DNA of 64,000 nt, taken from an uncultured Micavibrio sp. GTDB taxonomy: Bacteria; Pseudomonadota; Alphaproteobacteria; Micavibrionales; UBA2020. The notes under the pieces are model-generated. The model was not told where the DNA came from. It did not search any database and worked only from the letters and a program-made list of their open reading frames with translations. The stretch lies in assembly GCA_964534445.1 (NCBI GenBank), contig CAZHOE010000001.1, positions 550,493-614,492 on the forward strand, read 5' to 3'. Every line of letters begins with the position of its first letter. Within the stretch, counting starts at the first letter, position 1. Positions 18,246 through 37,733 of this stretch are shown in pieces. A program made the translations under genes and the position numbers.

Positions 18246-18350
18246 CGTAAGCGATTAAAAAGCGCTTGATCGGTCGCATAAATATATCATTTGGTAGATT
18301 TCTGATAGAACCACTATTTATTCCGGCTATGGCAATCCTTGTATTTAAGG

Positions 18351-18932
18351 CTAAGCTGTTACCCGCTCTTTTGCCGCGCGCTGTAGCAGCGTCGCGATAT
18401 CTTCAAGCGCCGCAACGTAATCGGGCTGGCTCGCGTTGAGCGCGGCCTGCGGCATATAAGGGGATTCAGCGGTTGCCGGATCTTGCACGATTGTAAGGCC
18501 GCCTTCGGCTTTTATGGCTTTCAGCCCCGCGCTGCCGTCAGCACTGGCACCCGTGAGGATAACGCCGATGATCTGCCCGCCAAGACTGTCCACAGCGCTT
18601 TCAAACAAGACGTCGATGGAAGGGCAGGAAAAATTGACGCGCGGATCTACAGACAGGCTGAAGGTTTTGTCCGGTTCCACCAGCAAATGATAATTAGGCG
18701 GTGCAAGGTAGATGCAGCCCGGTCGCATGGCTTCCTTGTCCTCAACTTCCTTCAAGGCAAGCGTGCAGTCTTGCCCCAAGTATTCGGCCATGTATGAATC
18801 CGAATGGCTGGCCATGTGCTGGACAATAGCGACGGGCAGGGGAAAATCAGCCGGCAGTGCACCCAGAATTGTCTTGAGCGCCCTCATGCCGCCGGCGGAA
18901 GCGCCGATGACAACGACTTCATACATGCGCAT
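18351..18932 (-). CDS. cheB: CheB-type protein-glutamate methylesterase, catalytic domain only (no receiver domain)
   Basis: 193 aa: VVVIGASAGGMRAL (Ser nucleophile region), IVQHM, GVILTGASADG. It starts directly with the esterase domain. Confidence 0.85.
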   Translation of the reverse strand: MRMYEVVVIGASAGGMRALKTILGALPADFPLPVAIVQHMASHSDSYMAEYLGQDCTLALKEVEDKEAMRPGCIYLAPPNYHLLVEPDKTFSLSVDPRVNFSCPSIDVLFESAVDSLGGQIIGVILTGASADGSAGLKAIKAEGGLTIVQDPATAESPYMPQAALNASQPDYVAALEDIATLLQRAAKERVTA

Positions 18933-19761
18933 TCTCGCTATGTTTCTTGAAAATGCGTTGCTTGGTATCCACCGTCTCGAACATCGGATGGACGGATGAA
19001 AAATTCAGGCTTTCCTTGCTGCCGAGACACAGAAAACCCCCGTGCCGCAAGCTGTCCGTAAAAAGACGCAGGGCGCGGTCTTGCAACGTCTTGTCAAAGT
19101 AGATCATCACGTTCCGGCAACAGATCAGGTTCATTTCGCCGAAAACCCCGTCTGTTACGAGATTGTGGTAGGAAAACGTGACCTTTTCCTTGAGGAAGTC
19201 CTTGATTTTAGCGCGGTCATAACCGGCGCTGTAATACTCGGCAAAATCGCGCTTGCCGCCGGAGGCCTTGTAGTTTTCCGCATAGGTCTGGATATTCTCC
19301 AAAGGATAAACAGCGTTTTGTGCAGCATCCAGCGCGTGCTTATTGAAATCGGTCGCGTAGATGCGGACTCGATCGAGGAAGTTTTCTTCGTGCAGTAGGA
19401 TCGCCATGGAGTAAACCTCCTCCCCCGTCGCACAGCCCGCGTGCCAAATCTTGACGAAAGGAAAGGTTTTGAGCATCGGTACAACTTGCTCCCGAACAGC
19501 CTTGTAGAACATCGGATCGCGGAACATCTCCGTCACCGTGATCGACATGTGTTTGAGCACCTGATCAAAAAACGCCTCATCGTGGAATAGCCGGTCAAGC
19601 ATCTCGGTATACCGGACGATTTTTGCCTGATCACACACACTGGCAAGGCGGCGCTTAAGAGACGAATGGGAATAATTGGCAAAATCGTAGCCATAACGGC
19701 GACGAATACCGTCGAGAAGTATTTCCATCTCCAGTTTGTCTAGATCCCTACCCGTGTTCAC
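18919..19761 (-). CDS. cheR: CheR-type protein-glutamate O-methyltransferase
   Basis: 280 aa: ITVTEMFRDP, VKIWHAGCATGEEVYS, IFCRNVMIYFD-like LICCRNVMIYFD. Its start overlaps the kinase stop (19758-19761) and its stop overlaps the cheB start (18919-18932). Confidence 0.85.
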   Translation of the reverse strand: MNTGRDLDKLEMEILLDGIRRRYGYDFANYSHSSLKRRLASVCDQAKIVRYTEMLDRLFHDEAFFDQVLKHMSITVTEMFRDPMFYKAVREQVVPMLKTFPFVKIWHAGCATGEEVYSMAILLHEENFLDRVRIYATDFNKHALDAAQNAVYPLENIQTYAENYKASGGKRDFAEYYSAGYDRAKIKDFLKEKVTFSYHNLVTDGVFGEMNLICCRNVMIYFDKTLQDRALRLFTDSLRHGGFLCLGSKESLNFSSVHPMFETVDTKQRIFKKHSENAHV

Positions 19762-22700
19762 AAAGTCTCATCCTGTTTGAACAACCAGACGCGCATCAGT
19801 GTCAACATACGTTCCATATCGACAGGCTTTGTCAGATAATCATTCGCGCCTGCTTCCATGCATTTTTCCTGCTCTTCGGGCATGGCGCGGGCCGTAAGCG
19901 CAATCATCGGCAATTTGCGCCATTTCTTGTCGGCACGGATGGCACGCATTGCCTCGTAGCCATCCATAACGGGCATCATGATATCCATGATAACAAGTTC
20001 AACCCCTTCGTTTTGGTCGAGCTTTTCAAGCGCCATCTTGCCGTTATCCGCAATCACGACATTCATTCCATGCTTTTTCAACATTTTTGACAGGGCAAAG
20101 GTATTGCGCAGGTCGTCATCCACCAACAAAACAGTGCGATCCAGCAGTACTTTATCGGGGTTATGCTGCATGCGGATAATCGCCTGCTGATCCTTGGATA
20201 GCGTTGATTCTACACTGTGCAGAAACAGCGTCACTTCGTCCAGCAGGCGGTCGGAGGAATGCGCGCCCTTGATAACAATACTGCCTGTGTACTGGCTGAG
20301 CTTGCGGTTCTCTTCCTCCGTCAATTCCTTGGCGGTATAGATGATCACAGGTGGCAAGTTGCCACTATCTACTTTTTCAGCCACGGCATTCAGCCATTCA
20401 AAGCCGGTCATGTCGGGCAGCAGCAGGTCGAGGATGATACAATCGAAAAGCTCTTCGGATACACGCGCAAGCGCTGTCGCGCCCGTACCGATACATGTGA
20501 TTTCGAGATCCTTTTTTCGCAAAAGCTTCTGGATTGCCGCCTGACTTTTTCTGTCGTCCTCAATAACCAGGATCTTTTTGGCGGAAGCGTCGAGAATGTC
20601 TTCGATCTTACCAAGCGCGCTATCAATGACCTCCACTTCGACGGGCTTGCTCATAATGCCGATAGCACCCTTGCGCAGCGGCTGGATTTCATCGATGTCG
20701 GTAAAACCTGTGATGATATGGACGGGAATATGGCGTGTTCTGAGGTCATGTTTAAGCTGGTCCAGAACATTCAGCCCGTCAATGTCGGGTAACCGCAGGT
20801 CAAGGATCACAGCACTGACCGGTTGTTCTGTCGCAAGCAGAATACCCGTCTTGCCGTCCCCTGCCACGAGGCACTTGAAACCGCGCTTTTGTGCCGTCTT
20901 CATCAGCACATAGGCAAAGTCCCGGTCATCCTCGATGATCAGGAGTGTCTTGTCCTTTTTGTCGATGTCGTCACGGTCATCGGCAATAAACGGTTTGACG
21001 GGCGTTTTCGGCATCGGTTTTATTTCAGTCCGCGCCGGTTCCGCCTTGCGCAGCGGCGCTATAAGCGCAGAGCTATCCTCTACGCCGGACGCTTTTTCCG
21101 CTTCTTCCTGTTTCCAATGCTCTGGCAGGATTAGCGAGAAGGTACTCCCCTGACCTTTCTTGCTGCTTACATGGATTTCACCGCCCATAATGTGGGCAAA
21201 CTTGCGCGCAATCGTCAGGCCAAGTCCCGTACCACCGTAATGACGGTCGGTCGAGCCATCTTCTTGCTGGAATGCCTCGAAGATGCTGTTCAGCTTGGCT
21301 TCATCAATGCCGATGCCCGTATCGGTCACGGAGAATGCGATGGCATTAGCAGGCGCGAGCAAGGTACGCTTAAGATTTACCGTTGTATCGGGGCGGGCGA
21401 TGCGTAGCGTCACAGAGCCGCGCTCTGTAAATTTGAAGGCGTTGGACAAAAGGTTCTTGATAATCTGCTCCACGCGCTGCGAATCCGTATGGATAAGCGC
21501 AGGAGCACCCTCTTCAATTTTGACACTTAAGGCCACGTTATTTTCTGCAGCGACGGGGCTGAACTGCTGCTCCATCCGGCGGGCAATATCCTTGGGGGCG
21601 ACGTCATCCGTGATAATGCTTATCTTTCCGGCCTCTACTTTCGAGAGATCAAGAATATCGTTGATGAGATCCAGCAGCTCGATACCGCCGTTGTATATGA
21701 TGTTAGATTCCTCAACCTGCTCCTCTGTCAAATTGCCCTCTTCGTTAGAAGCGAGATTCTTGGCCAAGATCAGCAGGCTGTTCAAAGGTGTGCGTAACTC
21801 ATGCGACATATTGGCGAGAAATTCTGATTTGTATTTACCGGACAACTCCAATTCCCGTGCTTTTTCCTCAAGCGCCTTCCGGCTCTCTTCCAGATGAGCT
21901 GTTTGCTCGCGAATACGCGTGTTTTGCTCCTCCAGCTCCTCGTTGGAAACTTCCAGCTCTTCTTGCTGCTGTTCAAGGCGCGCCTGTGATTCTTTCAATG
22001 CATTACTTTGTTCTTCCAGCTCCTCGTTGGAAACGCGCAATTCCTCGCTTTGCGTCTGGAGCTCTTCGGCCTGCGCCTGCGTTTCCTCCAAAAGCTTTTG
22101 AAGGTGGCTTCTGTAATTCGCAGACTGGACCGCGACACCGATGGCTTTGGATGCATGGTCCAGAAAACTGACGGCTCTGTCGTTAAGCTTTTGAATGAAT
22201 CCCAGTTCGAAAACCGCATGGATAGAGCCATCCGCAAAGGCCGGCGAAATGACCAGCTGGCGCGGCTTTGCTTGCCCAAGACCGGAGCCGACGCGGATGT
22301 ATCCGTCGGGCACGTCTTCGACGATGAAGGCACGCGCATCCTTGATCGCCTGCCCCAGCAGGTTGTCGTGATTGTGAACAACACTCTCTTGTGCTTCATC
22401 TACAGGAAATCCGTAGGTTGCCACGCGCCTGTATTCGCTTTCGCCCCTTGCAAAGAAAATACCCACATGCGCGTTGAGGTATTCGGCCAGAAACTTCAGG
22501 ACAGCTTCACCGAGTTCCGGCAACGTCAGGTCGCCAAGCATCGCCGAGGCCAGGCCGACCTGCCCGGATTGAAACCATTCCTCCTGCCGCCGCTGCGCTG
22601 CCGCCCTGCGCAACAAGGTGGTAATGGCCATCGCCAAAAGGATACCGAAGGCACAGCTGATAACGACCGTCATGATCGCATTTTGAAATGAACGCACAGC

Positions 22701-23255
22701 TTCTTCCGACAAGCGCTGACGGAGCTCGCGCTCGGTTTGTAGCATATCCGCTGTAACAGCGCGCAGGCGGTCCATGATTTCCTTGCCCTCGCCGGCCGTA
22801 ATCCGCGCCTTTGCTTCCTCGAAGCCTTTTTCACGTCTCAGGTCAATAACGTTTCCCAGAATTTCGATTCGTGCCTTGGTCAGATTTCGCAAGGTGGAGA
22901 TACGTTCTTGCTGCAAGGGATTGTCGCGCGTGAGCTTCTGAAGCCTGTCTATCTGCGTTTCCACTTGCGGTAACGCCAGCGTATACGGCTCGAGAAAAGT
23001 TGCATCCCCGCTCAGAACGTATCCTCGTTGTCCCGTTTCGGCATCTTTCATCAAAGACAGGATCGTATTGCACATCGTCAATACGTCATGGGTATGGCTA
23101 ACTGAATCGCCATTATTCCGAAGCGCAAGAAGGCTATTATACGTAATGTATCCGCTGGCAAAGAAGAAGATAACGACTGCCGTAAGCCCAGCCAGAAAGG
23201 GGAATTCGCGCACTTTATTCGTATTCTTTTGCGCAGGCCTTGCGTTGGTTGTCAT
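19758..23255 (-). CDS. Hybrid sensor histidine kinase: TM-CHASE3-TM-GAF-(Glu-rich coiled coil)-HisKA-HATPase-REC-REC-REC
   Basis: 1165 aa. The CHASE3 pattern is SVSHTHDVL...KDAETGQRGYVLSGDATFLEPY. There is a second TM helix and a GAF-like segment. The coiled coil reads QAEELQTQSEELRVSNEELEEQ...EELEVSNEELEEQ. The H-box is [10 protein letters not shown], followed by the N/G boxes. The three receivers carry ILDLRLPDIDG, ILDLLLPDMTG and IMDIMMPVMDG. Confidence 0.9.
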   Translation of the reverse strand: MTTNARPAQKNTNKVREFPFLAGLTAVVIFFFASGYITYNSLLALRNNGDSVSHTHDVLTMCNTILSLMKDAETGQRGYVLSGDATFLEPYTLALPQVETQIDRLQKLTRDNPLQQERISTLRNLTKARIEILGNVIDLRREKGFEEAKARITAGEGKEIMDRLRAVTADMLQTERELRQRLSEEAVRSFQNAIMTVVISCAFGILLAMAITTLLRRAAAQRRQEEWFQSGQVGLASAMLGDLTLPELGEAVLKFLAEYLNAHVGIFFARGESEYRRVATYGFPVDEAQESVVHNHDNLLGQAIKDARAFIVEDVPDGYIRVGSGLGQAKPRQLVISPAFADGSIHAVFELGFIQKLNDRAVSFLDHASKAIGVAVQSANYRSHLQKLLEETQAQAEELQTQSEELRVSNEELEEQSNALKESQARLEQQQEELEVSNEELEEQNTRIREQTAHLEESRKALEEKARELELSGKYKSEFLANMSHELRTPLNSLLILAKNLASNEEGNLTEEQVEESNIIYNGGIELLDLINDILDLSKVEAGKISIITDDVAPKDIARRMEQQFSPVAAENNVALSVKIEEGAPALIHTDSQRVEQIIKNLLSNAFKFTERGSVTLRIARPDTTVNLKRTLLAPANAIAFSVTDTGIGIDEAKLNSIFEAFQQEDGSTDRHYGGTGLGLTIARKFAHIMGGEIHVSSKKGQGSTFSLILPEHWKQEEAEKASGVEDSSALIAPLRKAEPARTEIKPMPKTPVKPFIADDRDDIDKKDKTLLIIEDDRDFAYVLMKTAQKRGFKCLVAGDGKTGILLATEQPVSAVILDLRLPDIDGLNVLDQLKHDLRTRHIPVHIITGFTDIDEIQPLRKGAIGIMSKPVEVEVIDSALGKIEDILDASAKKILVIEDDRKSQAAIQKLLRKKDLEITCIGTGATALARVSEELFDCIILDLLLPDMTGFEWLNAVAEKVDSGNLPPVIIYTAKELTEEENRKLSQYTGSIVIKGAHSSDRLLDEVTLFLHSVESTLSKDQQAIIRMQHNPDKVLLDRTVLLVDDDLRNTFALSKMLKKHGMNVVIADNGKMALEKLDQNEGVELVIMDIMMPVMDGYEAMRAIRADKKWRKLPMIALTARAMPEEQEKCMEAGANDYLTKPVDMERMLTLMRVWLFKQDETL
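21931..22034 (-). repeat. In-frame 84-nt tandem-type duplication inside the kinase coiled coil
   Basis: The exact 20-mer TCCAGCTCCTCGTTGGAAAC occurs at 21931-21950 and at 22015-22034. The spacing of 84 nt equals 28 codons, or four heptads. Each copy encodes VSNEELE(E). Confidence 0.8.
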
Positions 23256-23284
23256 GTCTTTTATCTCCCGTGCGATAAGCAGCG

Positions 23285-24439
23285 CTATTTAGGCCATGTA
23301 AAGATGAATGCCGCGCCCTTGCCTGGCTCGGATTCAACCCTTATCTTGCCGCCATATGTCATCAGGACCTTCTTTACGATCGCCAATCCCATACCGCTGC
23401 CCTCGACTTGGTCGCGGGGCCGCAATGTCTGGTACATCTCAAATATCCTGTCGTGGAATTCCGGTGCGATACCGGGGCCATCGTCCCGGATCGTGAAAGT
23501 GTAGTGGTCGCTCATTTCCTCAACGTCCATGTCTATCCGCCCCGTCGCGCCGCCGTGGTGCTTCAGCGCGTTATCCAGCAGATTGTGGATAATCTGTTGC
23601 AGCGGCAAGCGGGCGACTTTGATGGTATCAAACCTCTTGCCAATTTCCACCGTGAACTTTGGAACAGGTGCAAGAAGACCGACGATATCTTCCGCCAGTT
23701 CCTTGCCGCTGATGATTTCACCGCGGTTAAAGTTCTCTTTGTCGTTGATACGGGCGTATGCGAGCGTATCGTCCAGAAGCTTTTCCATGCGCATGACATT
23801 CTTGCGGATTCCACCCATATATTTCTGGCCGCCCTCGTCCAGCGCACCGCTCAAATCATCTTCCAGCCATTGCGACATCTTGTAGATGGCCCGCAGGGGC
23901 GTCTTGAGGTCGTGTGCGCAGATATATGCAAATCGTTCGAGCTCCTCATTGGATTGCATCAGCGTGGCGTTGAGCTTCATGATATACTCGCGCTGCATGT
24001 ATAGGTCGAGATACACACTGACCTTGCTGCGCAGAATATCCGTATTAATCGGTTTGAAAATATAATCGACGGCGCCGATTTCCGCCGCGCGCGTGGCGTA
24101 TTTTTCTTCTTTGCTGATCGCCGTGACAAAGATGATCGGGGTACCGCGCATGGAATCGTCTTCCTGCATCAAGGAGGCTGTTTCAAACCCATCCATTTCG
24201 GGCATCTGAACATCGAGAATGACCACGGCGAATTTATGCCGCAGCATAAGCGAAAGAGCCTCGTTGCCGGAATTAGCCATATAGATGTTCGCAGGGAGAT
24301 ACCGGAGAATTTTTTCGGTCACGAAGAGGTTTTCTTTCCTGTCATCAACGATCAGGATGTTCGGCAATTCTTCCGGTGGCGCGACCTTGAAAGAGCCGTT
24401 AGCCTCTTTTGTCCGTTTTTCAGAGGAGCCGGGAGACAT
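23285..24439 (-). CDS. Receiver-histidine kinase fusion (REC-HisKA-HATPase)
   Basis: 384 aa: ILIVDDRKEN...VILDVQMPEMDG...KP receiver, a linker helix, the H-box CAHDLKTPLRAI (phytochrome-type), and the HATPase boxes NALKH, DDGPGI and GSGMGL. Confidence 0.85.
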   Translation of the reverse strand: MSPGSSEKRTKEANGSFKVAPPEELPNILIVDDRKENLFVTEKILRYLPANIYMANSGNEALSLMLRHKFAVVILDVQMPEMDGFETASLMQEDDSMRGTPIIFVTAISKEEKYATRAAEIGAVDYIFKPINTDILRSKVSVYLDLYMQREYIMKLNATLMQSNEELERFAYICAHDLKTPLRAIYKMSQWLEDDLSGALDEGGQKYMGGIRKNVMRMEKLLDDTLAYARINDKENFNRGEIISGKELAEDIVGLLAPVPKFTVEIGKRFDTIKVARLPLQQIIHNLLDNALKHHGGATGRIDMDVEEMSDHYTFTIRDDGPGIAPEFHDRIFEMYQTLRPRDQVEGSGMGLAIVKKVLMTYGGKIRVESEPGKGAAFIFTWPK

Positions 24440-24739
24440 CTGCGTTTCCTTGATTTATTTATGCCCTTCCGTTTCCCGGCGAACGAAAGTTGCCGAGGAT
24501 GTATGTATGATGTTCTGAAACAACTTTTGACGCAATTGATATTTTAGTGTTTTGCGCCGTAGTAATATCGAAAGGCCAAAGCCTAAATTCTGTATACCTT
24601 TTTTTGTAACGGGTGTTCTACTTCGAATTTTTGCAAGAAGCGTGAATAATTAACTATATTTCAAAGATGGAAGTAGTAGAATTTCAGATATGTTCGTATT
24701 GCTGCACTGCCATACAGATATCCAGAGGCGCGACACATT

Positions 24740-26437
24740 ATGATGTGTAAAGAAGATGAAATGACGGATCCTGAACAGACGCTCAAACATAAAACGTCCA
24801 GCCCGATCCTGATTGTCGAAGATAATGAGAACGACATTGAAGCGGCGCGGCGTGCTTTTAGCAAAACAAAAATCCCTCACGGTATCAGTCACGCATGGAC
24901 AGCCGAAGAGGCCATAGATTATCTGCTTGATCCCGGTAACGCCGTTCCCAGCCTCATTCTTCTCGACCTTAATCTACCGGGCATGGGCGGACGTAAAGCG
25001 CTCGAACTGATCAGAAAAGACAAGAGTCTGACGCAAATCCCGATCATCGTCCTGACAACATCCGATCACGACAAGGATGTCGAGATGTGTTACGCCCTTG
25101 GGGCGAGCTCTTATATTAAAAAGCCGGTCGACTTCGATGCCCTCTGTCAAGCCGTGCGCAACTTAGTCGAATACTGGCTAGGTACCAGCCTTCTGCCTCC
25201 CCTACGCGAACAGCAAGAGCGTATCAAAGCACTTGAAGAGGCCAAACGCGCGGCGGAACTGGCTAACCAGGCGAAAAGCGACTTCATCGCGGTCATGTCG
25301 CACGAATTACGTACGCCGTTGAATTCCATACTCGGCATGTTGCGCCTCGTTCTAGAAGAAACGTCGACGATGTCGTCGCAGCGCGAAATGCTCGATGTTG
25401 CCTACGAGTCTGCAGAGGGGCTGCTCGCCACGGTGAATGACATTCTGGACATATCCAAAATCGAGGCCGGCTGTCTCGAGCTAGAACGGATTCCGCTCAG
25501 CTTCGAAAACACCCTACAAAGCGTTGCGGACAGCATGAGGCCGCTTTACCTTGGAAAAGGCCTGTTGTTCGAGTGTAATTTTCCCAGCACGGGCATTCCG
25601 CATTTGCTGGGGGACCCTATGCGTCTCAGACGCATAATGGTCAACCTTATCGGCAACGCCGTAAAATACACGGAAAAGGGTTCGATCACACTGGACATCG
25701 AGACTACGCAGCATACAGGTGATGCGCTGACGCTCACAATGAGTGTCACAGACACCGGGATCGGCATCCCGGCAGAAAAGATGGAGTACATCTTTGAGAA
25801 ATACACACAAAGCGACAGCTCCATCACGCGGCGCTTTGGCGGCACGGGGCTTGGCCTCAATATCACCAAGGAAATTGTCCAAATGATGGGCGGTACGGTG
25901 GGCGTCGAAAGTACGCTGGGCGAGGGATCACGTTTCTGGTTCAGCATTCCCTTCTACACGACAGAGGATGATCTGCCCGCCGAAAATCATGCCCTGCACA
26001 GCCGGTCGGCAGAAGGCCCCCTTGCCGCCACGCGCAAGCACGCGGCCGATATGAAGCTTCTGCTCACAGAGGATGATGCCCTGAATATCGCCTTTATGAA
26101 GAAGCTGCTCCCGCGCATGGGTTTCACGGACTTCGATATCGCCAAGACGGGGCAAGAAGCGCTCGATGCCGTCGTTAAAGGAGATTACGACATTATTCTC
26201 ATGGACTGCCACATGCCGATCATGAGCGGATATGACGCCACACAGAAAATTCGCCTGCGCGAAAAAGAAAACGATAGCCCGATCGTCCCTATCATTGCCA
26301 TGACGGCCGATGCCATGGAAGAAACGCGTGTGAAGTGTCTGCAAGCCGGAATGAACGAGTACGTCAGCAAACCCATAGATATGGATTCTCTGCGCGACGT
26401 TTTAAGCCAGTGGATCGTTTTCCCCGAGGATCATTAG
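24740..26437 (+). CDS. Hybrid histidine kinase REC-HisKA-HATPase-REC
   Basis: 565 aa. The N-terminal receiver ([12 protein letters not shown]) ends in [11 protein letters not shown]. The H-box is [10 protein letters not shown], with the HATPase boxes following. The C-terminal receiver carries [12 protein letters not shown]. Confidence 0.85.
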
Positions 26438-26449
26438 CCTGTTCAAACT

Positions 26450-29246: not shown

Positions 29247-31537
29247 GAAAACCAATTTTTAAACTCGGCATAAAAACCAAAATATTTTTACCCCTTTTTC
29301 TGCTTATGGCTGGTGTCGGGCTATATTTTTATCTAGTCTGGGTGCCAAAATCCGTTTCTTTTTCCGTGGGGGAATCCCTGAAACTACTGCATCATACGCT
29401 GGAGATTGTCGAAATCCAGATTACGCAGGATATCGCAAAAGGAGACTTGGATACGGTACGCCAAAACCTAGATTTGTTATTGTTAAAAAACCCGTCGTGG
29501 CAGCGGCTTGTTTTGAAAGATGCAAACGGCGTCATCCTCTATCCTGAAGGAGAGGAGATCCTGCCATCCACCCGGCAAGATCTCAAAGCCGTTTCCCTGC
29601 AGATGGCAACCTACGGAAAAAATATTGGCAGCCTCACTCTGGAATACGACTTTTCCGAGACCTCAAAAGAAATTCGTCGTGATGCTTTGCGTTTATTTGC
29701 CTTTCTGATCGGCGCTTTGTTTCTCTTTATTGCCACGGCCACAATTATTATTCAGCTCTTTGTCATCAAACCCGCACGGTTGCTGGCCAAAGCTGCGGAG
29801 CATTTCACAAGTGGTGACACCGCAGGAGAAAATGATATCCATCATCTACCTCCCGTCACAAGCGACGAGATCGGCACACTGACCCAAAGCTTTACTGCCA
29901 TGCGGAAAGCAATTGCACTGCAACGGCTCAACCTGGTAAGCCAGAACAAGGAGCTGGAAGCGGCCAGGGATCTGGCCGAAAGATCCAACCGCGCCAAAAG
30001 CGAATTTCTGGCCAATATGTCGCACGAACTGCGTACCCCGCTGAACAGTATCATGGGCCTATCCCGCATGATATCCGAAGAACCGTCAACAGACCAAGAC
30101 ACCGCCCACATGGCCACCACAGTCAATAAAGCGGCTATCACGTTGCTGGACATTGTGAATGACATTTTGGATATCTCCAAAATCGAAGCGGGCGGCATGG
30201 TGCTGGAAAAAATCGGATTTGATATAAAGGAAATCATATCCAGCATTGTTGAAACAATGGCACCGATCGCGAGCGGCAAAGGCGTTTCACTTAAATACCA
30301 TTATGAGACGGAGGATATTCCATTCGTACTCGGCGACCCCCTCCGTTTCAGCCGGATTGTAACCAATCTTGTCAGCAACGCGATTAAATACACCGAAACA
30401 GGCGAGGTCAACATATCGGTTGCCGCAGACCCGATCGAGGGAACGGACAACAGCCAAATCGAATTCTATTGCACGGTAGAAGATACCGGTATCGGCATTC
30501 CGCAAGATAAACTGCATTCCATTTTCGACAAGTTCACACAGGTGGACGAGACGATCACGCGCAGATTCGGCGGTACCGGCCTTGGTCTGGCGATTACGCA
30601 GGACCTCGTCAAAATGATGCACGGCACTATCGGCATCGACAGCGTGGTCGGGCAAGGATCCCTCGCCTGGTTCAAAATTCCCTTTATCGTTACAGATGAG
30701 ATCGACAAAGATATGCGCCGTGGACGCCGCGCCCAAAGACAGAAAGTCGTGTCGGCTGACCATCTGATACCCGCGGAACAGGCTCGCTTGCTTGTGGCTG
30801 AAGATCATCAGCTCAATCAAGATTTTATTAAACGACTGTTAAAGCGCATGGATCTGCAAAACTACCTGATTGTCGAAACGGGCGCCGATGCCGTAGACAA
30901 ATGGCGAGATGGCAATTTTAGCCTGATCCTGATGGACTGCCATATGCCGGAAAAGAATGGCTATGAAGCGACCCGTGATATCCGTGCCGCAGAAAGCGGG
31001 ACAGGCAAGCGTATTCCGATCATTGCGCTAACGGCAGATGCCATGAAAGGAACACAAGAAAAGTGTATCGATGCAGGCATGGACGAATATATCACAAAGC
31101 CTATTGACGCCGATGACCTGCGCGATGCCCTTTCGCAATGGATACTGTTTCCGGACACGACGGTATCTGCGCCGGCACAGCCGCAGGGTATCGTTGAGCC
31201 CGTCGACACCCCCGCAGATCTATCCTTGCTGTCAGATTACGCAGAGACACCTGAGGAAATGGAACAATTCTTACAAACTTTTACCACTGTCAGCACCGAA
31301 TGCCTGGAACTCCTGACCGCGCACTGTATCGATGGCATTTGCACACCTTGGGTAGAAGCTGCGCATAAATTCAAAGGGGGCGCCGGTATTGTCGGCGCGA
31401 AAAAACTACAGGCACTCTGCGCACAGGCGCAAGATATGGAAGAAGCCTCTATCAAGGACAGAGAGAATATCCTGAAAAAAATAAAAAATGAATACGACAT
31501 TGTAAAAAAATATTGCGAGCAAGAAATCGCAAACTAA
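29243..31537 (+). CDS. Hybrid sensor histidine kinase: TM-periplasmic loop-TM-HAMP-HisKA-HATPase-REC-HPt
   Basis: 764 aa with two TM helices flanking a loop of about 130 aa. The HAMP segment reads SDEIGTLTQSFTAM and the H-box is [10 protein letters not shown]. The receiver carries [12 protein letters not shown]. The C-terminal HPt domain contains AAHKFKGGAGIVGAKKL. Confidence 0.85.
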   Translation: MRKPIFKLGIKTKIFLPLFLLMAGVGLYFYLVWVPKSVSFSVGESLKLLHHTLEIVEIQITQDIAKGDLDTVRQNLDLLLLKNPSWQRLVLKDANGVILYPEGEEILPSTRQDLKAVSLQMATYGKNIGSLTLEYDFSETSKEIRRDALRLFAFLIGALFLFIATATIIIQLFVIKPARLLAKAAEHFTSGDTAGENDIHHLPPVTSDEIGTLTQSFTAMRKAIALQRLNLVSQNKELEAARDLAERSNRAKSEFLANMSHELRTPLNSIMGLSRMISEEPSTDQDTAHMATTVNKAAITLLDIVNDILDISKIEAGGMVLEKIGFDIKEIISSIVETMAPIASGKGVSLKYHYETEDIPFVLGDPLRFSRIVTNLVSNAIKYTETGEVNISVAADPIEGTDNSQIEFYCTVEDTGIGIPQDKLHSIFDKFTQVDETITRRFGGTGLGLAITQDLVKMMHGTIGIDSVVGQGSLAWFKIPFIVTDEIDKDMRRGRRAQRQKVVSADHLIPAEQARLLVAEDHQLNQDFIKRLLKRMDLQNYLIVETGADAVDKWRDGNFSLILMDCHMPEKNGYEATRDIRAAESGTGKRIPIIALTADAMKGTQEKCIDAGMDEYITKPIDADDLRDALSQWILFPDTTVSAPAQPQGIVEPVDTPADLSLLSDYAETPEEMEQFLQTFTTVSTECLELLTAHCIDGICTPWVEAAHKFKGGAGIVGAKKLQALCAQAQDMEEASIKDRENILKKIKNEYDIVKKYCEQEIAN

Positions 31538-31965
31538 TAATCATATGCTCTCCTTCAATAACCTTAAGATGAGCATTCAATCGCCCTTTCTACTGTTAAT
31601 TGAATACACTTATGCGGTATCAGAACGTTTTACACTAGCTGAGTAGACCATAGGAAAGCGGTTACAACGAGAGATTTTCGCGGGCTGGTTTTGCGTGATA
31701 AACCCTTAAAGGGATAAACTTTCTGCACGCTTAGAGAAGCTAAGGCCTATTCTGAAAGAATAGCGGCATAACTTACACAACCGCTTCCCATCCGCACATC
31801 ATCAGCCTTGGGTATATATATCCTCTTAATTACTTATAATCCTCGTAATGCGGCCTTATAATGTTCTCAAAAGCAAAAGGCTTCTCAAGAGTGCTTTGGG
31901 CACCCAACTCTCTGGCAGAGTCAAGAAAGCTGCCGTTCTTTCCTATCTATGATGCAACACATCTC

Positions 31966-32394
31966 TTAAATCGGCAGAAGTGCCGTTTCAAGCCAATAAT
32001 CACCAATACATCTGATCGTTTGGGTCAAGCCTTCGTAATCTAGCGGTTTTTGGATATAAGAATTGGCGCCTGCCTGATAGCAGGCTTTAACATCGCGCTC
32101 GCTGGCAGAGGTCGTGAGGATGATAACGGGGATGTGTTGCAAACCGGCATCTTGCTTGATGTGTTGCAGAATTTTGCGGCCATCAAGACCCGGCATATTA
32201 AGATCGAGAAAGATCAATACCGGTAACGCGCCTGATTTTCCTTCTTCCAAATAGGCCAGTGCCTGCTGGCCTGTACGACACCAGATAATAGGATATTTCA
32301 AGCCTACTTTCTGGCTGGCGCGTAGGATGGCTTCGTAATCATCTTCACTGTCTTCTACCAGAAGGATAGATTTTATATAGAGGGGCTCAGTCAT
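31966..32394 (-). CDS. Single-domain response regulator (Rcp1/CheY-like)
   Basis: 142 aa: LLVEDSEDD, IFLDLNMPGLDG, ILTTS, QKP, with the C-terminal tail DYWLETALLPI. Its start overlaps the upstream kinase stop. Confidence 0.85.
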   Translation of the reverse strand: MTEPLYIKSILLVEDSEDDYEAILRASQKVGLKYPIIWCRTGQQALAYLEEGKSGALPVLIFLDLNMPGLDGRKILQHIKQDAGLQHIPVIILTTSASERDVKACYQAGANSYIQKPLDYEGLTQTIRCIGDYWLETALLPI

Positions 32395-34706
32395 AGAATG
32401 TTTTTCTCCAGCGTAAAGTAAAAAGTCGCTCCCTGATCAAGTGCGGATTCCACCCAGATCTCGCCTCCATGTCGCTCGACGATTTTCTTGACGAATGTCA
32501 GGCCGGCGCCTGTCCCTTCTTCTTGTTCTCCCGTGGTGCTTTGCAGACGCCGGAAGATGCGGAATATTTCTTCGTGGAATTGAGGATCGATGCCTCGACC
32601 ATTATCCTTCACGTAGAAAACATTCCGCCGCTGTTTCCCGTTCACCTTGACATGGTTATCAAGAAATCCGATCTCGACCGTTTTTTCCTTCGTCTCCGTG
32701 TATTTTACCGCGTTGGTGATCAGATTGCGAAAGACTTCGGCAACACGCGGCTTGTCACAGCGGATCGTCGGCAGAGGGCCTGCAACGATAATCCTGGCAT
32801 TGTTCTCTTTCAGGAAAACGTCAATGGTGCTTTCAATGTCGCGGACCACGTCATTTATATCGGTAAGCTGTACAGCAAGCGCCTGGCGCCCCAGCCTTGA
32901 AAAATACAATAAATCATTGACGAGTTTTTCCATGCGTTGACTGAGATAAATAAGACGGTGCAGACGGTTCGTACTTTCCTGATCAAGTTTGCCTTCGTTG
33001 TCTTCCATCAGGAAACGCGCATGATTGTGGATACCGCGTAGCGGTTCCTTTAGATCGTGGGAGGCTATATGAGCAAAATCGTCTAGTTCTCTATTGCTGC
33101 GCTCGAGATCCTGTGTGTAGCGCATAATGGATTCTTCTGCCTTTTTTCGATCCGTGATGTCGCGAATGATACCGGAGAAATATTGTTTCCCCTCTACCTG
33201 AAAAGCACTGATCGACAAATCCATCGGGAAGATGCTGCCATCCTTTCTCTTTGCCAGGAGCTCCCGTCCGGCTGTACCGATAATTTTACCTTCCTTGGTT
33301 TCCGTATAGCGTGCGATGTAGCCATCATGCTGACTGTGGTATGGTTCAGGCATTAATATTTTTATGTTCTTTCCACGCACTTCTTCCGCCTTATATCCAA
33401 AAATGCGTTCGCAGGCAGGATTGAAGGTATGGATAAACCCGTGGGCGTTGATGGTGATAATACCATCCACCGTATGCTCGACCACCGCTCTTAGCTTTGC
33501 TTCGCTCGCCTGTAATCTGGACTCCGCCTGCTTGCGCTCCGTGATGTCCCGGACAAAAGCCGTAAATTGGTAATCGCGGTTCAGCTTCTGGGCGGAAATG
33601 CTCAGTTCGATAGGAATGGTTTCCTGACGGTTGTTGAGTCCTTCCACTTCGATGCGTCTATTCAGTAGCGGCCCCGTGCCACTGGTCAGGAAACGCTGCA
33701 TGCCTTGCCTGTGCGCTTCCCGGTAAGCTGGAGGAATAATGAGGTCCGCCAGCTCGTTTCCCATCGCGTCCTGTCGCGACCAACCGAAGATCTGTTCTGC
33801 CTGTTTGTTCCATTCAGTCACATTGCCTTGCGAATCCATTGAGATGATTGCATCCAGTGCGCCCTCGATAATTGTGCGCAGTTTGTTCTCGCTCATAAAC
33901 AGCGCCTTCTCCGCTTGGGCTCTTCTATAAGCGCCCAGCGACAAGGCGAGGCCAAGAATGATTGCCGTGAAGGCTGCCACGGCGATTGCCAGCATGTTGA
34001 AATCCTGCTGCTGGTCATAGCGGCAGTCTGCATACGGCATAAACACGGCAGCGAACATACCTGTATAATGCATGCCGCAAATCGCCGCCCCCATGATAAG
34101 AGCGGCGGCGATCTGATACAGGCTCCGGTATTTTCTATCGCTGCGGGCAAACTTGAACGCCATCCATATCGCAGCGGCAGAGGCGATAATCGCGATCCCT
34201 ACGGAAAGCAGGAAAATATCTGGTAAGTAGCGTAGATCGGCATCCATTTGCATCGCCGCCATACCTGTGTAATGCATGCCGCAAATGCCAAACCCCATCA
34301 CCACGGCCGCAACTAGCAAGGGGCGAAGGGACAGGTTCTTGCGGGCGGCGATCGACAGCGCAATGTAGGCTACGGAAATGGCAATCAGTAAGGAAAGGAC
34401 CGTCAACGACGGATCATAGGTAATCACCATACGCATTTTATAGGACAGCATACCGATAAAATGCATGGACCAGATACCGGCCCCCATCGCGAAAGCGCCG
34501 CCCCAGTGCAAAAGACGGCGTTCCTGCGCCGAAGTGGCAACGGACAGTTGCTGTGTCAAAGACAATGCCGTATAGGCAGCAAAACTGGCTACAATGTAGG
34601 AAAGCACCACGAGCGAGGGCTGATATGTCCCTGTTTCGATGTTGGTAGGCAAGGCACTGGCGATAAAAAAGGATTCAAACAAGGAAAGACCTATTCCCTT
34701 CCGCAT
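32391..34706 (-). CDS. MHYT-domain sensor histidine kinase (MHYT x3 - PAS - PAS - HisKA - HATPase)
   Basis: 771 aa. The N-terminal membrane region carries WSMHFIGM, CGMHYTGM and CGMHYTGM in alternate helices. Two PAS-like segments follow. The H-box is ASHDLKEPLRGI, then the HATPase boxes. Confidence 0.85.
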   Translation of the reverse strand: MRKGIGLSLFESFFIASALPTNIETGTYQPSLVVLSYIVASFAAYTALSLTQQLSVATSAQERRLLHWGGAFAMGAGIWSMHFIGMLSYKMRMVITYDPSLTVLSLLIAISVAYIALSIAARKNLSLRPLLVAAVVMGFGICGMHYTGMAAMQMDADLRYLPDIFLLSVGIAIIASAAAIWMAFKFARSDRKYRSLYQIAAALIMGAAICGMHYTGMFAAVFMPYADCRYDQQQDFNMLAIAVAAFTAIILGLALSLGAYRRAQAEKALFMSENKLRTIIEGALDAIISMDSQGNVTEWNKQAEQIFGWSRQDAMGNELADLIIPPAYREAHRQGMQRFLTSGTGPLLNRRIEVEGLNNRQETIPIELSISAQKLNRDYQFTAFVRDITERKQAESRLQASEAKLRAVVEHTVDGIITINAHGFIHTFNPACERIFGYKAEEVRGKNIKILMPEPYHSQHDGYIARYTETKEGKIIGTAGRELLAKRKDGSIFPMDLSISAFQVEGKQYFSGIIRDITDRKKAEESIMRYTQDLERSNRELDDFAHIASHDLKEPLRGIHNHARFLMEDNEGKLDQESTNRLHRLIYLSQRMEKLVNDLLYFSRLGRQALAVQLTDINDVVRDIESTIDVFLKENNARIIVAGPLPTIRCDKPRVAEVFRNLITNAVKYTETKEKTVEIGFLDNHVKVNGKQRRNVFYVKDNGRGIDPQFHEEIFRIFRRLQSTTGEQEEGTGAGLTFVKKIVERHGGEIWVESALDQGATFYFTLEKNIL

Positions 34707-34887
34707 GGTTGCTGAAGACCATTGTATGGTAAGCTATCAGTATGGATCAAGAAACTAAAAATAGTGGGTTTATGCAATATTATCTTATTCGGGTTATAAT
34801 AAGAAAATATTGATGCCTTGATAAGTACAGACTGCTGATGCAGCATTTTTATGAAAGTCTTTGTTTGGGAAATTTTGGTAAAAGCCT

Positions 34888-36018
34888 ATGGCAGCATTGC
34901 AGCATATTTCATCTGAACGACCGTTAAAAATTTTAATTGTCGAAGACAACCCCGAAGATCGGGAGGCCTATCAGCGCATCTTAAAAAGAAGCTTTGCCGA
35001 CATTGAAATTCTGGAAGCGGAGAGCGTACGGCAGGGTCTTGCCCTATCGGCAACAAACGATCCTGATTGCATCTTGCTCGATTACCAGCTGCCGGATGGA
35101 AATGGCATTGATTTCATCAGAATATACCTTGATACCACGTCCCCACGCGCCGCTATCATTATGGTGACGGGACAGGGCAGCGAAATGACAGCTGCCGAAG
35201 TCATGAAACTGGGCGCGTTGGACTACATCACTAAAAGCAGCATCATGGAAGGCTATTTTGTACAAAACGTCATGAACGCGATTGAAAGGGCTCACCTGAA
35301 GGAAATGGTGGAGAAGTACCAGCAAGAACTCGCGCTTTCGAATAAATCACTTTCTGAATTCACACATACAGTATCACATGATCTAAAAGCGCCGCTCCGC
35401 CATATTTCTTCCTATTGCGAGCTGTTGAATCAGGAATGTGCGGACAAACTTGGCCCTGATGGCAGGAAGTACGTTAGTAGGCTGATCGTCAATACTGCCC
35501 GGCTCCAGCGGCTCATCGACGACCTTCTGGCTTACTCCCTGACGTTGCATGCCGAGGCGAAAATGGCCCACGTCGACTGCGCAAAAATCCTGAGTGAAAT
35601 CACGGAAGATCTGGAAGAAGTGATCCGGGAAAATCAGGCAGTGATTACGGTTCAAAAGCTACCTACAATATGGGCTTGCCCTTTGCGTATTAAACAGGTT
35701 TTCCAAAACCTTATCGATAACTCCATCAAGTATCGCAGCGACCATCCTCCTCTCATTACAATTACATGCGAGGATCGCGGCTCAGATTATCTTTTTTCTG
35801 TTCGCGACAACGGTTGCGGCATAGAAGAAGAATATAGGCAAACGATTTTCGAAGCCTTTAAACGTCAGCACATGCAAGACGAAGTTGAGGGATCGGGCCT
35901 TGGCTTATCGATATGCCGGAAAGTAGTTGACATGCATAGCGGCAGAATATGGGTCGAACAAAATCCGGATGGCGGCTCTCTTTTCCGTTTCACGATTCCA
36001 AAACAGGCGCAGACGTAA
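34888..36018 (+). CDS. Receiver-histidine kinase fusion (REC-HisKA-HATPase)
   Basis: 376 aa: ILIVEDNPEDRE, ILLDYQLPDGNG, H-box VSHDLKAPLRHI, and the HATPase boxes NSIKY, DNGCGI and GSGLGL. Confidence 0.85.
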   Translation: MAALQHISSERPLKILIVEDNPEDREAYQRILKRSFADIEILEAESVRQGLALSATNDPDCILLDYQLPDGNGIDFIRIYLDTTSPRAAIIMVTGQGSEMTAAEVMKLGALDYITKSSIMEGYFVQNVMNAIERAHLKEMVEKYQQELALSNKSLSEFTHTVSHDLKAPLRHISSYCELLNQECADKLGPDGRKYVSRLIVNTARLQRLIDDLLAYSLTLHAEAKMAHVDCAKILSEITEDLEEVIRENQAVITVQKLPTIWACPLRIKQVFQNLIDNSIKYRSDHPPLITITCEDRGSDYLFSVRDNGCGIEEEYRQTIFEAFKRQHMQDEVEGSGLGLSICRKVVDMHSGRIWVEQNPDGGSLFRFTIPKQAQT

Positions 36019-36042
36019 ATAGGAACCGGAACGGCAACAGGC

Positions 36043-36531
36043 TCAGTTTTTAAAATCCGGCTTCACGCTGCCCTGCTCCTTTTCCTCTTCTTGCTGAAGC
36101 TGCAGAAAAAAAGATTCCAGCTTTTCCGATGTCATGGGCTTACGAAAGACACCATCTGCATCCAGTTCCATCGCCTGCTTGAAAGTATCAAAGGATAGCG
36201 CCCCCGTCAGCACAATCGTATGCGCGTCCTTCACCAAAAAAGAGTTCGACTTTATTTTTCCCAGCAACGTAAGCCCGTCCATTCTGGGCATATTCAAATC
36301 GATGATGATAAGAGCGGGAGAGCCTGTCTGCGAATACTGCGGGTGCTCTTCCATATAGGCAACAAAATCCATTGCATTAGAAAAACCGTATACGCCATGC
36401 ACCCATGGCGAGGTTTCCAGCACGCGTTGTGTGAAAAAGCGATCATCCTCATTGTCTTCCACAAGGAAAACATCATATGGGGGTTTTTCTGGCGCCTTAT
36501 CTTCCAGTAATTTTTCTTTCTGCCGTATCAT
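36043..36531 (-). CDS. Single-domain response regulator with acidic C-terminal tail
   Basis: 162 aa: FLVEDNEDD, IIIDLNMPRMDG, IVLTG, FRKP. Confidence 0.8.
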   Translation of the reverse strand: MIRQKEKLLEDKAPEKPPYDVFLVEDNEDDRFFTQRVLETSPWVHGVYGFSNAMDFVAYMEEHPQYSQTGSPALIIIDLNMPRMDGLTLLGKIKSNSFLVKDAHTIVLTGALSFDTFKQAMELDADGVFRKPMTSEKLESFFLQLQQEEEKEQGSVKPDFKN

Positions 36532-36537
36532 AAGCGC

Positions 36538-36993
36538 CTACTGTTCAACGTTATGATGCATCAGATCCATAAGTTTTTTTCTGGTGCATGGTTTGGGTAA
36601 AAAAGCCGTTGCCCCATGTTGGGAACAAGCGTGAATTTCCTCATCATCCAGTACGCCGGAGATAATCACGATGGCTATGTCCGCCAGAGCAGGCTCCTTT
36701 TTTAAAGCTTTCAGTGTGTTGATCCCGTTCATTTCCGGCATATTCAGGTCGAGCAAAATCAGCCATGGTTTTTTCTCGTCTCCCTCGCTTCTATATCTAT
36801 ACAAATAGCGTAACAGACCTGTTCCGTTTCTGAAAACAATGACGGGTGCATCACCGAACAAAAACTCTATTTCACGTCGCAGGAGAAATTGATCGTCTAC
36901 ATTATCCTCGACGATGACGATAGGCCTCGGTGTCCCGATAAGTGGATCGACAAAACCTAGTTTATTTTTAAAATAGGGCTCGCCCCAATACAT
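36538..36993 (-). CDS. Single-domain response regulator with an N-terminal extension of about 30 aa
   Basis: 151 aa: VIVEDNVDD, ILLDLNMPEMNG, IVIISG, LPKP. Confidence 0.8.
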   Translation of the reverse strand: MYWGEPYFKNKLGFVDPLIGTPRPIVIVEDNVDDQFLLRREIEFLFGDAPVIVFRNGTGLLRYLYRYRSEGDEKKPWLILLDLNMPEMNGINTLKALKKEPALADIAIVIISGVLDDEEIHACSQHGATAFLPKPCTRKKLMDLMHHNVEQ

Positions 36994-37277
36994 GTATTCC
37001 CCTCAAAACAAGCATCTTCAAAAATTATAAAAATATATTAATCCATTAAAATTCAGCACAAACAGTTTTAAAAGAACTACTATCAATTTAATTATAATTT
37101 TATCATTTTGGGGTTAACAACGTCTAAATATCTACGCTTTAGGTTCCAAGACAATTTGTTATTAACGCCGTGTAAAACAAACTGGGATATTATTGATTTT
37201 ATAAGAATTTTTTTCTATCTCGCGAATTCTGCTATCTCCTTGCTTTTAATACAGAATGAATTCTGAAAGGAACCGCG

Positions 37278-37733
37278 ATGCATAATTCTTCTCTCCGCAC
37301 ACAGCAATTCATTCTTCTCGTCGAAGACAGCGAGGATGACTTTGAAGCGACAAAACGCGCGTTTGCGAAAACAAATCTAATCAATCCTATCCGCAGATTC
37401 ATATCCGGTGAGGAGGTATTGGCGTACCTAGATATAGCTGAGAATGCGATGCCGGGCCTGATATTGCTAGACCTCAACTTACCCGGTATGGATGGACGTA
37501 AGACTTTGGAGATTATCAAACAGAATGCAGATCTTCGAAGAATCCCCGTCATTATTCTAACAACATCTAATGACGAACGGGATGTGACGGCTTGTTATGA
37601 GCTTGGCGCGAATACGTATATACAAAAGCCCGTAGATTTTGATGGCCTCATTGAAGCAATCAAGCAATTAAAGGAATACTGGTTTGAAATAGCCCTGCTA
37701 CCCAAAGACAACGAGACAGAAAAGAAGCCATGA
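37278..37733 (+). CDS. Single-domain response regulator (Rcp1/CheY-like)
   Basis: 151 aa: [29 protein letters not shown], with the tail EYWFEIALLPK. Confidence 0.85.
   Translation: MHNSSLRTQQFILLVEDSEDDFEATKRAFAKTNLINPIRRFISGEEVLAYLDIAENAMPGLILLDLNLPGMDGRKTLEIIKQNADLRRIPVIILTTSNDERDVTACYELGANTYIQKPVDFDGLIEAIKQLKEYWFEIALLPKDNETEKKP

Follow-up and report, generated by a model that had tools for sequence, protein, structure and literature searches.

The CHASE3-HAMP-GAF hybrid kinase RsbK of Bacillus cereus is methylated on its signalling helix (S-helix) by the adjacent CheR-like enzyme RsbM, which represses signalling, and 127 RsbK-like kinases have been reported in 10 phyla (PMC4574943; PMC12848376). 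In the YfiBNR system of Pseudomonas aeruginosa, the small secreted protein YfiR, whose stability needs a Cys145-Cys152 disulfide, is encoded together with the PAS-HAMP-GGDEF diguanylate cyclase YfiN and the OmpA-like lipoprotein YfiB (PMC4655355). Cph1-Rcp1 and bacteriophytochrome pairs (PDB 1I3C, 1K66, 1K68, 8AVV) consist of HDLxxPLR kinases and single receivers with a C-terminal (F/Y)W...LP extension. Here we analyzed a stretch of 64,000 nucleotides from an uncultured Micavibrio sp. (GCA_964534445.1, contig CAZHOE010000001.1, positions 550,493 to 614,492; hereafter the window), and describe a block of signalling genes situated in it between a conserved gene for a protein of 412 amino acids (aa) and the 3' end of a tRNA-Leu(CAA). 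An earlier note, made from the sequence alone, had taken this block for one horizontally assembled, multi-input phosphorelay. On balance, our results favour an insertion that is a mosaic of four two-component modules (A to D) and not one phosphorelay, and we propose how the modules may work.

Results and discussion

Block boundaries and the tRNA-Leu locus

Contigs from other samples delimited the block on both sides; the 94%-identical sister strains come from the samples SRR24881069, DRR779145, DRR779146 and SRR36519098. Three of them (L093, L094 and L095) were collinear with window positions 6806-18074 at 94.1-94.6% identity. About 55 nt past the end of this homology, each had part of a tRNA-Leu, its 3' end, with a sequence identical to window 37779-37845 (67 nt in L093 and L094, 55 nt in L095), after which two different unrelated sequences followed. 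The 412-aa gene of these relatives therefore stood about 55 nt from the tRNA-Leu fragment, and the whole signalling block was absent. On the right, four relatives (L176-L179) matched the window at 94% from 38814 onward. They further shared 116 nt with the window, 37823-37938, which comprise the tRNA's 5' part together with its upstream region; in L176 and L179 this piece adjoined a 391-aa gene with a faint integrase-domain match. The left (37779-37845) and right (37823-37938) tRNA fragments of the relatives share 23 nt, 37823-37845, which would likely represent the attachment (att) core found at both ends of other integrated elements in these genomes. The contig matches on the two flanks thus point to a sister lineage in which the 412-aa gene and the tRNA-Leu are neighbours, the tRNA is targeted by integrating elements and the block is missing. 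Judged by eye, the junctions of the block lie at ~18088 and ~37762. Synteny with relatives whose flanks are 94% identical thus supported the island idea of the earlier note, and the tRNA-Leu that it had placed at one edge was indeed found there.

The proteins of the block differed from those of the flanks in their distribution. In a collection of 15 billion proteins, all seven island proteins looked up were singletons at 90% clustering, and no homologue of at least 90% identity was found for any of them. Of the four flank proteins present there, three (412-aa, DsbB and Elm1-like) had relatives at ≥90% identity, the exception being the sulfotransferase encoded beside the tRNA. The block would represent a lineage-specific insertion, a gain at a hotspot being more likely than a precise loss.

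Several findings weigh against a gain, and would fit a block that is ancestral and was deleted in the sister lineage as other elements entered the tRNA-Leu; formally, such a loss is an equally single event. Among the 14 genes of the block, neither an integrase nor a transposase was detected (Pfam). No att repeat was found by blastn-short of the tRNA against the window and by k-mer comparison of the block ends; the two ends had no 10-mer in common, and the far end carried no tRNA fragment. A search of the whole window with Rfam returned the tRNA only. Base composition, which the earlier note had proposed as a check, gave a mixed picture. Mean GC content was lower in island genes (0.494) than elsewhere in the window (0.530, p = 0.004), but GC content at third codon positions (GC3) was not significantly different (0.559 and 0.596, p = 0.09), and module A, the left third, was host-like; as a whole, the block is almost host-like in composition. 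Moreover, the comparators for its absence belong to one lineage, whose three left-flank contigs were identical over the 209 nt compared at the junction. The deletion would, on the other hand, have had to remove exactly 19.7 kb; in the relatives an unrelated, hairpin-containing spacer stands between the 412-aa gene and the tRNA 3' fragment. The locus is also a demonstrable hotspot, with two elements in the relatives and a strain-specific sulfotransferase segment of 875 bp in the window itself. Together with the lack of ≥90% homologues of the seven island proteins looked up, whereas three flank proteins have such relatives, these points make an ancestral block unlikely, and we keep to the insertion.

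In abutting the 3' end of a tRNA, in being missing from the nearest relatives and in the use of the same tRNA-Leu by integrase-bearing elements of these relatives, the block resembles tRNA-linked genomic islands. It differs from them in lacking an integrase and a tRNA-derived direct repeat, in its minimal compositional signal and in a cargo of purely signalling genes.

Further observations concern the same locus. In the sister strains (L176 629-713 and 2264-3581, the tRNA fragment of L093 and L094, and L095), integrated elements interrupt tRNA-Leu(CAA), and the 23-nt core is duplicated. Fragments of 67 nt and of 55 nt occur, and the site is used by no fewer than two different elements. The junction beside the integrase-like gene of 391 aa gave no tRNA match. 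Both L176 and L177 have, within 3 kb, another tRNA-Leu(caa) copy that is 78-81% identical and is possibly a replacement brought by the integrated element. Across the tRNA-Leu from the block, window 37939-38813 is likewise absent from the 94%-identical relatives, in which the tRNA upstream region abuts a VTT-domain gene; this 875-bp segment is a second strain-specific indel at the locus. The sulfotransferase gene lies within it (37946-38734, minus strand), and its protein is likewise a singleton at 90% clustering. The variable locus is bordered on the left by the 412-aa gene and on the right, beyond the tRNA, by the strain-specific sulfotransferase. The name given by the Joint Genome Institute to a relative of the 412-aa protein at ≥90% identity is 'LPS sulfotransferase NodH'. 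The decayed usp gene that the earlier note had placed at the left edge was not found: 18011-18350 and the open reading frame 17901-18269 gave no Pfam match at E ≤ 1, and inspection of the six frames of 18011-18360 and of this reading frame revealed nothing Usp-like.

Domain content and mosaic structure

Between 18351 and 37733 we counted 14 genes, 11 of them two-component genes (Table 1). Domains were called with Pfam on all 14 block proteins at E ≤ 0.01, and acceptor residues were read from the translations. The components listed in the earlier note were largely recovered: six kinases, each with HisKA and HATPase_c and located precisely where the note had put them, 12 receivers and a single HPt, located at the C-terminus of the 764-aa kinase. 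The kinases contain 3, 1, 2, 1, 0 and 1 receivers in order of position, and four more receivers are single-domain proteins. All 12 keep the acceptor Asp, as the note had read, and in addition the T/S and Lys residues. The two H-box classes, with three kinases each, were also evident from the translations: SHELRTPLN in the 1165-, 565- and 764-aa kinases and HDLKxPLR (Cph1-type) in the 384-, 771- and 376-aa kinases. The very AT-rich spacers of the earlier note have GC contents of 0.33 (34707-34887) and 0.29 (36994-37277). NCBIfam gave no equivalog above cut-off for any of the block kinases.

The claim that the block lacks output domains held in part. No match to HTH, GGDEF, EAL, HD-GYP or sigma-related domains, nor to PP2C, anti-sigma or sigma domains, was obtained in any of the 14 proteins. 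That no enzymatic domain occurs is wrong, because genes for CheB and CheR stand at the left end of the block. These two, the TonB-dependent receptor and the YfiR-like gene had gone unmentioned. It is more likely that CheB and CheR serve adaptation of the CHASE3 kinase than that they are outputs.

Modules A, B and C were each found alone in other genomes, and nothing but adjacency links the modules here, which is why we regard the block as a mosaic and not as one relay. Assembly from separate parts is supported by the recurrence of module A on two contigs with unrelated surroundings (L082 and L180) and of module B in a metagenome-assembled genome (MAG) of Micavibrio aeruginosavorus and elsewhere. 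The single multi-input phosphorelay of the earlier note is not supported. In such a relay, six kinases and twelve receivers would converge on the one HPt, with the stand-alone receivers as output. The physical clustering of 11 two-component genes among 14 and the presence of just one HPt would fit it, as would the spread of Rcp1-type receivers and of Cph1-type kinases over three of the four modules; the 565- and 764-aa kinases could even use the same HPt, since they are 47% identical and their C-terminal receivers 51%. Given the separate conservation of modules A, B and C, the division of the block into at least five transcription units with convergent and divergent junctions, and related cassettes elsewhere that have their own HPt or REC-GGDEF partners (REC, receiver domain), a single relay appears improbable. 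A scan for sigma-70 and terminator signals did not decide the operon calls.

Table 1 Features of the block and its borders (positions in the window)
Feature	Position	Strand	Basis
Left-flank gene, 412 aa, conserved, without Pfam or NCBIfam match	16772..18010	+	
Lineage-specific block, ~19.7 kb	18075..37770		blastn homology to L093, L094 and L095 ends at 18074 and returns at 37771-37845
Module A: CheB methylesterase without receiver, 193 aa	18351..18932	-	Pfam CheB_methylest 1.4e-60; PDB 3SFT/1CHD
Module A: CheR methyltransferase, 280 aa	18919..19761	-	Pfam CheR 3.9e-41, CheR_N 1.5e-9; PDB 5FTW 1.6e-34
Module A: hybrid kinase, 1165 aa; CHASE3, membrane span, GAF, coiled coil, HisKA (H485), HATPase, three receivers (D819, D943, D1091)	19758..23255	-	Pfam
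Glu/Gln-rich helix, aa 378-475 of 1165-aa kinase, between GAF and HisKA; candidate methyl-accepting segment	21831..22124	-	
Module A: REC-HisKA-HATPase kinase, 384 aa; D76, H176, HDLKTPLR	23285..24439	-	Pfam; L082 and L180 orthologues with identical H-box
Module A: REC-kinase-REC, 565 aa; Rcp1-type REC (D76) with 11-aa tail, HisKA (H188), HATPase, REC (D489)	24740..26437	+	Pfam
Module B: TonB-dependent outer-membrane receptor, 661 aa	26450..28435	-	Pfam Plug 4.5e-20, TonB_dep_Rec_b-barrel 4.6e-28
Module B: YfiR/HmsC-like secreted protein, 180 aa; GTG start, signal peptide ending VYA (by eye)	28704..29246	+	DUF4154 family matches; Foldseek
Module B: membrane kinase, 764 aa; periplasmic domain, HAMP, HisKA (H261), HATPase, REC (D565), HPt	29243..31537	+	Pfam
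HPt, only one in block, aa 675-753; His708 in AAHKFKGG	31265..31501	+	Pfam Hpt 3.2e-8
Module C: RR142, Rcp1-type single receiver, 142 aa; D64, tail DYWLETALLPI	31966..32394	-	4-nt overlap with kinase stop
Module C: kinase, 771 aa; three MHYT repeats, two PAS, HisKA (H550, HDLKEPLR), HATPase	32391..34706	-	Pfam MHYT 1.4e-46, PAS 2.4e-32
Module D: REC-HisKA-HATPase kinase, 376 aa; D65, H164, HDLKAPLR	34888..36018	+	Pfam
Module D: single receiver, 162 aa; D78, acidic C-terminal tail	36043..36531	-	Pfam Response_reg 3.2e-16
Module D: single receiver, 151 aa; D82	36538..36993	-	Pfam Response_reg 9.3e-17
Module D: RR151b, Rcp1-type single receiver, 151 aa; D65, tail EYWFEIALLPK	37278..37733	+	Pfam 5.4e-22; PDB RcpB 1K66 7.6e-32
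tRNA-Leu(CAA), intact, 3' end toward block	37779..37863	-	ARAGORN; Rfam RF00005, 54.3 bits
23-nt stretch within tRNA-Leu, likely att core	37823..37845		Overlap of left and right tRNA fragments in relatives

Module A, a kinase cassette with CheR and CheB

The minus-strand operon of module A runs from the 384-aa kinase through the 1165-aa kinase and CheR to CheB, with junctions of 29, 4 and 14 nt, and the 565-aa gene is divergent. The CheR gene overlaps both of its neighbours, with 4 nt shared with the stop of the 1165-aa kinase gene. In CheB, the GASAGG, QHM and TGASADG motifs align with the catalytic Ser, His and Asp of 1CHD. CheR, aligned to 5FTW and 1BC5, keeps its S-adenosylmethionine-binding motifs, and CheB, aligned to 3SFT and 1CHD, its catalytic triad. 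The 193 aa of CheB cover only positions 154-338 of the 340-position CheB model, and an N-terminal receiver is absent. The 1165-aa kinase matched CHASE3 (1.3e-41) and GAF_2 (4.6e-12) and showed three Response_reg stretches.

The same five genes occur in the same order in L180 (82-89% aa identity, with other neighbours) and in L082 (65-79%, beside ribosomal protein genes); the EYWLGTxLLPP tail of the 565-aa kinase is conserved in both. A shorter core consisting of sensor hybrid kinase, CheR, receiver-less CheB and REC-kinase was found in a Nitrospira MAG (L084), a Desulfurispora MAG (L086) and the contig L088. All six genomes keep the order hybrid kinase-CheR-receiver-less CheB; the REC-kinase precedes the hybrid kinase in the block, L082 and L180 and comes after CheB in L084, L086 and L088. 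The receiver-less CheB family is very large, with 7838 of 8000 candidates scored passing E ≤ 1e-10. Among the nearest relatives of the CheR protein there were many fusions with CheB, in either order, as well as one CheR-REC-GGDEF-EAL protein. A literature search returned nothing on this combination of CheR/CheB and hybrid kinase, RsbK/RsbM being the one lead.

The 98 residues between GAF and HisKA of the 1165-aa kinase form a Glu/Gln-rich coiled coil (hereafter the EEL helix), in which QxEELxVSNEELEEQ occurs twice and five EEL motifs are spaced by 7, 7, 21 and 7 residues. Five to six EE[LIM] motifs, with spacings that are all multiples of 7, were present in the 100 aa before the H-box of all six kinases examined that are linked to CheB and CheR (CheBR-linked), together with an E+Q fraction of 0.30-0.43. 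In the other five block kinases, no EE[LIM] motifs occur and the E+Q fraction is 0.10-0.14. The EEL helix is thus conserved at the sequence level over distant taxa, next to the phospho-accepting His, and may be the substrate of the adjacent CheR and CheB. Because it occurs only in CheBR-linked kinases, the 1165-aa kinase is probably RsbK/RsbM-like. It shares with RsbK the membrane hybrid architecture with CHASE3, GAF, a pre-HisKA helix and a C-terminal receiver, and the adjoining CheR-type gene presumably acts on the helix; such modules are widespread according to the literature (PMC4574943). The differences are that three receivers are present where RsbK has one, that CheR is paired with a receiver-less CheB whereas RsbM is an orphan in B. 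cereus without an esterase, and that a REC-kinase and a REC-kinase-REC take the place of the PP2C regulator RsbY and sigma-B (PMC4574943, citing Chen et al. 2012 and de Been et al. 2010/2011). Two further features speak against the assignment. The EEL helix does not match the strict chemoreceptor consensus [ASTG][ASTG]xx[EQ][EQ]xx[ASTG][ASTG], and, unlike in RsbK, Pfam detected no HAMP between CHASE3 and GAF, where by eye ~30 aa separate the second membrane span from GAF. For these two reasons we file the kinase as working like RsbK/RsbM and not as a proven member of this group.

A word-indexed search with the EEL helix alone yielded short fragments only. A 148-aa fragment matching the helix (P0316) carries a precomputed Pfam assignment, PF28019, beside HisKA. 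This family was not reported for the 1165-aa kinase by the Pfam copy searched and may be a newer model of the EEL helix itself.

In the proposed mode of action, the 1165-aa kinase would sense a periplasmic or cytoplasmic cue, and its gain would be set, as by RsbM for RsbK, through methylation of the EEL helix by the adjacent CheR and demethylation by the receiver-less CheB. Cph1-type H-box kinases recurrently pair with receivers bearing an Rcp1-type tail, which suggests how the cascade might continue: the 1165-aa kinase would pass phosphate to the 384-aa REC-kinase, which would phosphorylate the Rcp1-type N-terminal receiver of the third, 565-aa kinase. Module A might then be a complete reversible methylation-adaptation system acting directly on a histidine kinase, without chemoreceptor, CheA or CheW, and might give the three-kinase cascade a sensory memory like that of chemotaxis; we put this forward tentatively, at slightly less than an even chance.

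Micavibrio is motile, and CheB and CheR might instead be ordinary chemotaxis adaptation enzymes for chemoreceptors encoded elsewhere, their place beside the kinases being incidental. The match of both to classical CheB and CheR structures, with intact active-site motifs, would agree with this, as would the departure of the EEL helix from the chemoreceptor consensus. We consider it a poor explanation, in view of a CheB that lacks the receiver through which CheA controls classical CheB, the lack of CheA, CheW and chemoreceptors among the 33 window proteins scanned, a gene order that is kept together with the REC-kinase in six of six genomes under several taxonomic labels and with overlapping frames here, the restriction of the EEL heptad helix to CheBR-linked kinases, and the proven methylation of a hybrid kinase by a CheR-type enzyme in RsbM/RsbK (PMC4574943).

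Module B and a YfiR-like protein

The start of the 764-aa kinase gene overlaps the stop of the yfiR-like gene, and the TonB receptor gene is divergent. The M. aeruginosavorus MAG (L089) contains the same three genes (receptor 61%, kinase 55% and small protein 54% identical) beside a resolvase and a coupling-protein gene. They were also found in L090, L091 and L092, and the divergent TonB receptor is conserved. Eight of the nine members of the 180-aa protein family matched DUF4154 (best 3.6e-5), and Cys137 and Cys143 are invariant. The AlphaFold2 model of the 180-aa protein (pLDDT 75, core >87) retrieved YfiR structures with Foldseek (4YN7, 4YN9 and 4ZHU; TM 0.58/0.68, probability 1.0), and also a Rhodothermus single-lobe binding protein (E 4e-6). 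Less favourable to a relationship with YfiR are the DUF4154 E-value of 0.09 for the 180-aa protein itself, the medium confidence of its model and a search of the family profile against PDB sequences that gave no YfiR match.

As in YfiBNR, the gene for a small secreted protein, here putatively of the YfiR fold, lies immediately upstream of that for a membrane sensor that has HAMP and a periplasmic domain, and a gene for an outer-membrane partner stands next to them. The conserved C-terminal Cys137/Cys143 pair recalls Cys145-Cys152 of YfiR. The effector of module B differs in being a hybrid histidine kinase with HPt and no GGDEF, the outer-membrane partner is a TonB-dependent receptor in place of the lipoprotein YfiB, and the DUF4154 similarity is marginal. 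By analogy with YfiR, we infer that the 180-aa protein would bind and restrain the periplasmic domain of the 764-aa kinase until sequestered or destabilised, with the TonB-dependent receptor supplying or sequestering the cue.

Modules C and D and the Rcp1-type receivers

The kinase and receiver of module C were also found as a pair in L096 and L098. Module D comprises three transcription units, and its 376-aa kinase is 31% identical to the 384-aa REC-kinase of module A. A similar run, with kinase, Rcp1-type receiver, REC-kinase and receiver, occurs in L098, a metagenome contig from another organism. At 4967-13392, the genes of this contig, for MHYT kinases, Rcp1-type receivers, REC-kinases and also hybrid kinases, are packed about as densely as those of the block, and we conclude from it that multi-tier signalling clusters recur. 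The 376- and 384-aa kinases share the domain order REC-HisKA-HATPase with LvrB and the C-terminal half of LvrA from Leptospira (NF047466, NF047465), whose models were their best or near-best NCBIfam matches (E 1e-51 and 2e-46). They are not orthologues: their scores of 176 and 159 bits fall far short of the family cut-off of 1200.

The (D/E)YW(L/F)xxxLLP tail that the earlier note had noticed in two stand-alone receivers and in the N-terminal receiver of the 565-aa kinase was confirmed, and the three receivers are 46-57% identical to each other. The link to Rcp1 that the note had suggested proved correct: the top PDB matches of RR151b, aligned through the tail, were RcpB (1K66, 7.6e-32), Rcp1 (1I3C) and RcpA (1K68), and several bacteriophytochrome-associated regulators were matched as well. 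Cph1-type H-box kinases stand beside (D/E)(Y/F)W...LP-tailed receivers in modules A and C, in L096 and L098 and in the Nitrospira cassette (L084), where a REC-kinase with SHDMQEPVR is followed by RR145 with the tail DFWSDVGRLP. While this pairing resembles Cph1-Rcp1, the HDLKxPLR kinases of the block have no PAS-GAF-PHY photosensory core (no PHY by Pfam), their inputs being MHYT and PAS or REC, and in one case, the 565-aa protein, a further kinase has an Rcp1-type receiver at its front. In module C, the MHYT-PAS kinase would phosphorylate the translationally coupled RR142. The second REC-kinase and the three single receivers of module D might extend or buffer the pathways above.

Output of the block

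We infer every phosphotransfer partner in the block. With REC D565 and Hpt His708, the 764-aa kinase has the hybrid kinase and HPt parts of a multistep His-Asp-His-Asp phosphorelay, but no terminal regulator with an output domain is encoded in the block, all four stand-alone receivers being single-domain (Pfam). It is reasonable to assume that output occurs by protein-protein contact or is encoded elsewhere; the single-domain receivers would act by contact with other proteins, and the HPt would serve regulators outside the block. The related cassettes in other genomes are followed by an HPt of their own, by REC-GGDEF or by single receivers, suggesting that cassette outputs are lineage-specific. 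The nearest regulator with an output domain is an OmpR-type protein (6899-7591, minus strand) in the conserved flank, 10.5 kb from the block and without an adjacent kinase. Relatives without the block have it too, and it is a possible candidate for a downstream regulator.

Other genes in the flanks

A second OmpR-type regulator (244 aa) is encoded together with a HAMP histidine kinase (449 aa) at 47993-50082 on the minus strand, as assigned by collinearity with the annotated contig L176. This pair is ordinary, lies outside the block and is conserved in relatives. The conserved right flank also contains a stand-alone HNH endonuclease gene (41176-41739, minus strand), found in all relatives examined. 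On the left, a KefC-like Na/H exchanger with TrkA_N (14904-16601) is 90% identical at the aa level to genes in MAGs labelled Micavibrio sp. and Nitrospirales. The matches at 90% identity had no neighbouring gene in common, which left the synteny comparison uninformative, and the pattern reflects recent horizontal transfer of the gene or mis-binned contigs.

Conclusions

The components of the block are variants of known systems and not a new kind, and the cassette of a CheR/CheB-tuned kinase is the most interesting lead. At this tRNA hotspot, ~20 kb of pure signalling capacity was cleanly gained or lost in nature; the host has a small genome (2.64 Mb) and is probably a Micavibrio-like predator. 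The locus is thereby of interest for how near-identical strains come to differ in their sensory repertoires. Module B suggests that YfiR-type periplasmic repressors control histidine kinases too, beyond cyclic diguanylate (c-di-GMP) cyclases. In module A, a sensor hybrid kinase, CheR, a receiver-less CheB and a REC-kinase form a compact cassette in which a two-component kinase is probably tuned by methylation of the chemotaxis type. The cassette is widespread, with receiver-less CheB homologues in the thousands, and its form with CheB is experimentally untouched. Of such a system, the methyltransferase half alone has been studied so far, in RsbK/RsbM of B. cereus; the version with an esterase, the conserved EEL helix as its candidate substrate and the downstream cascade are new ground.

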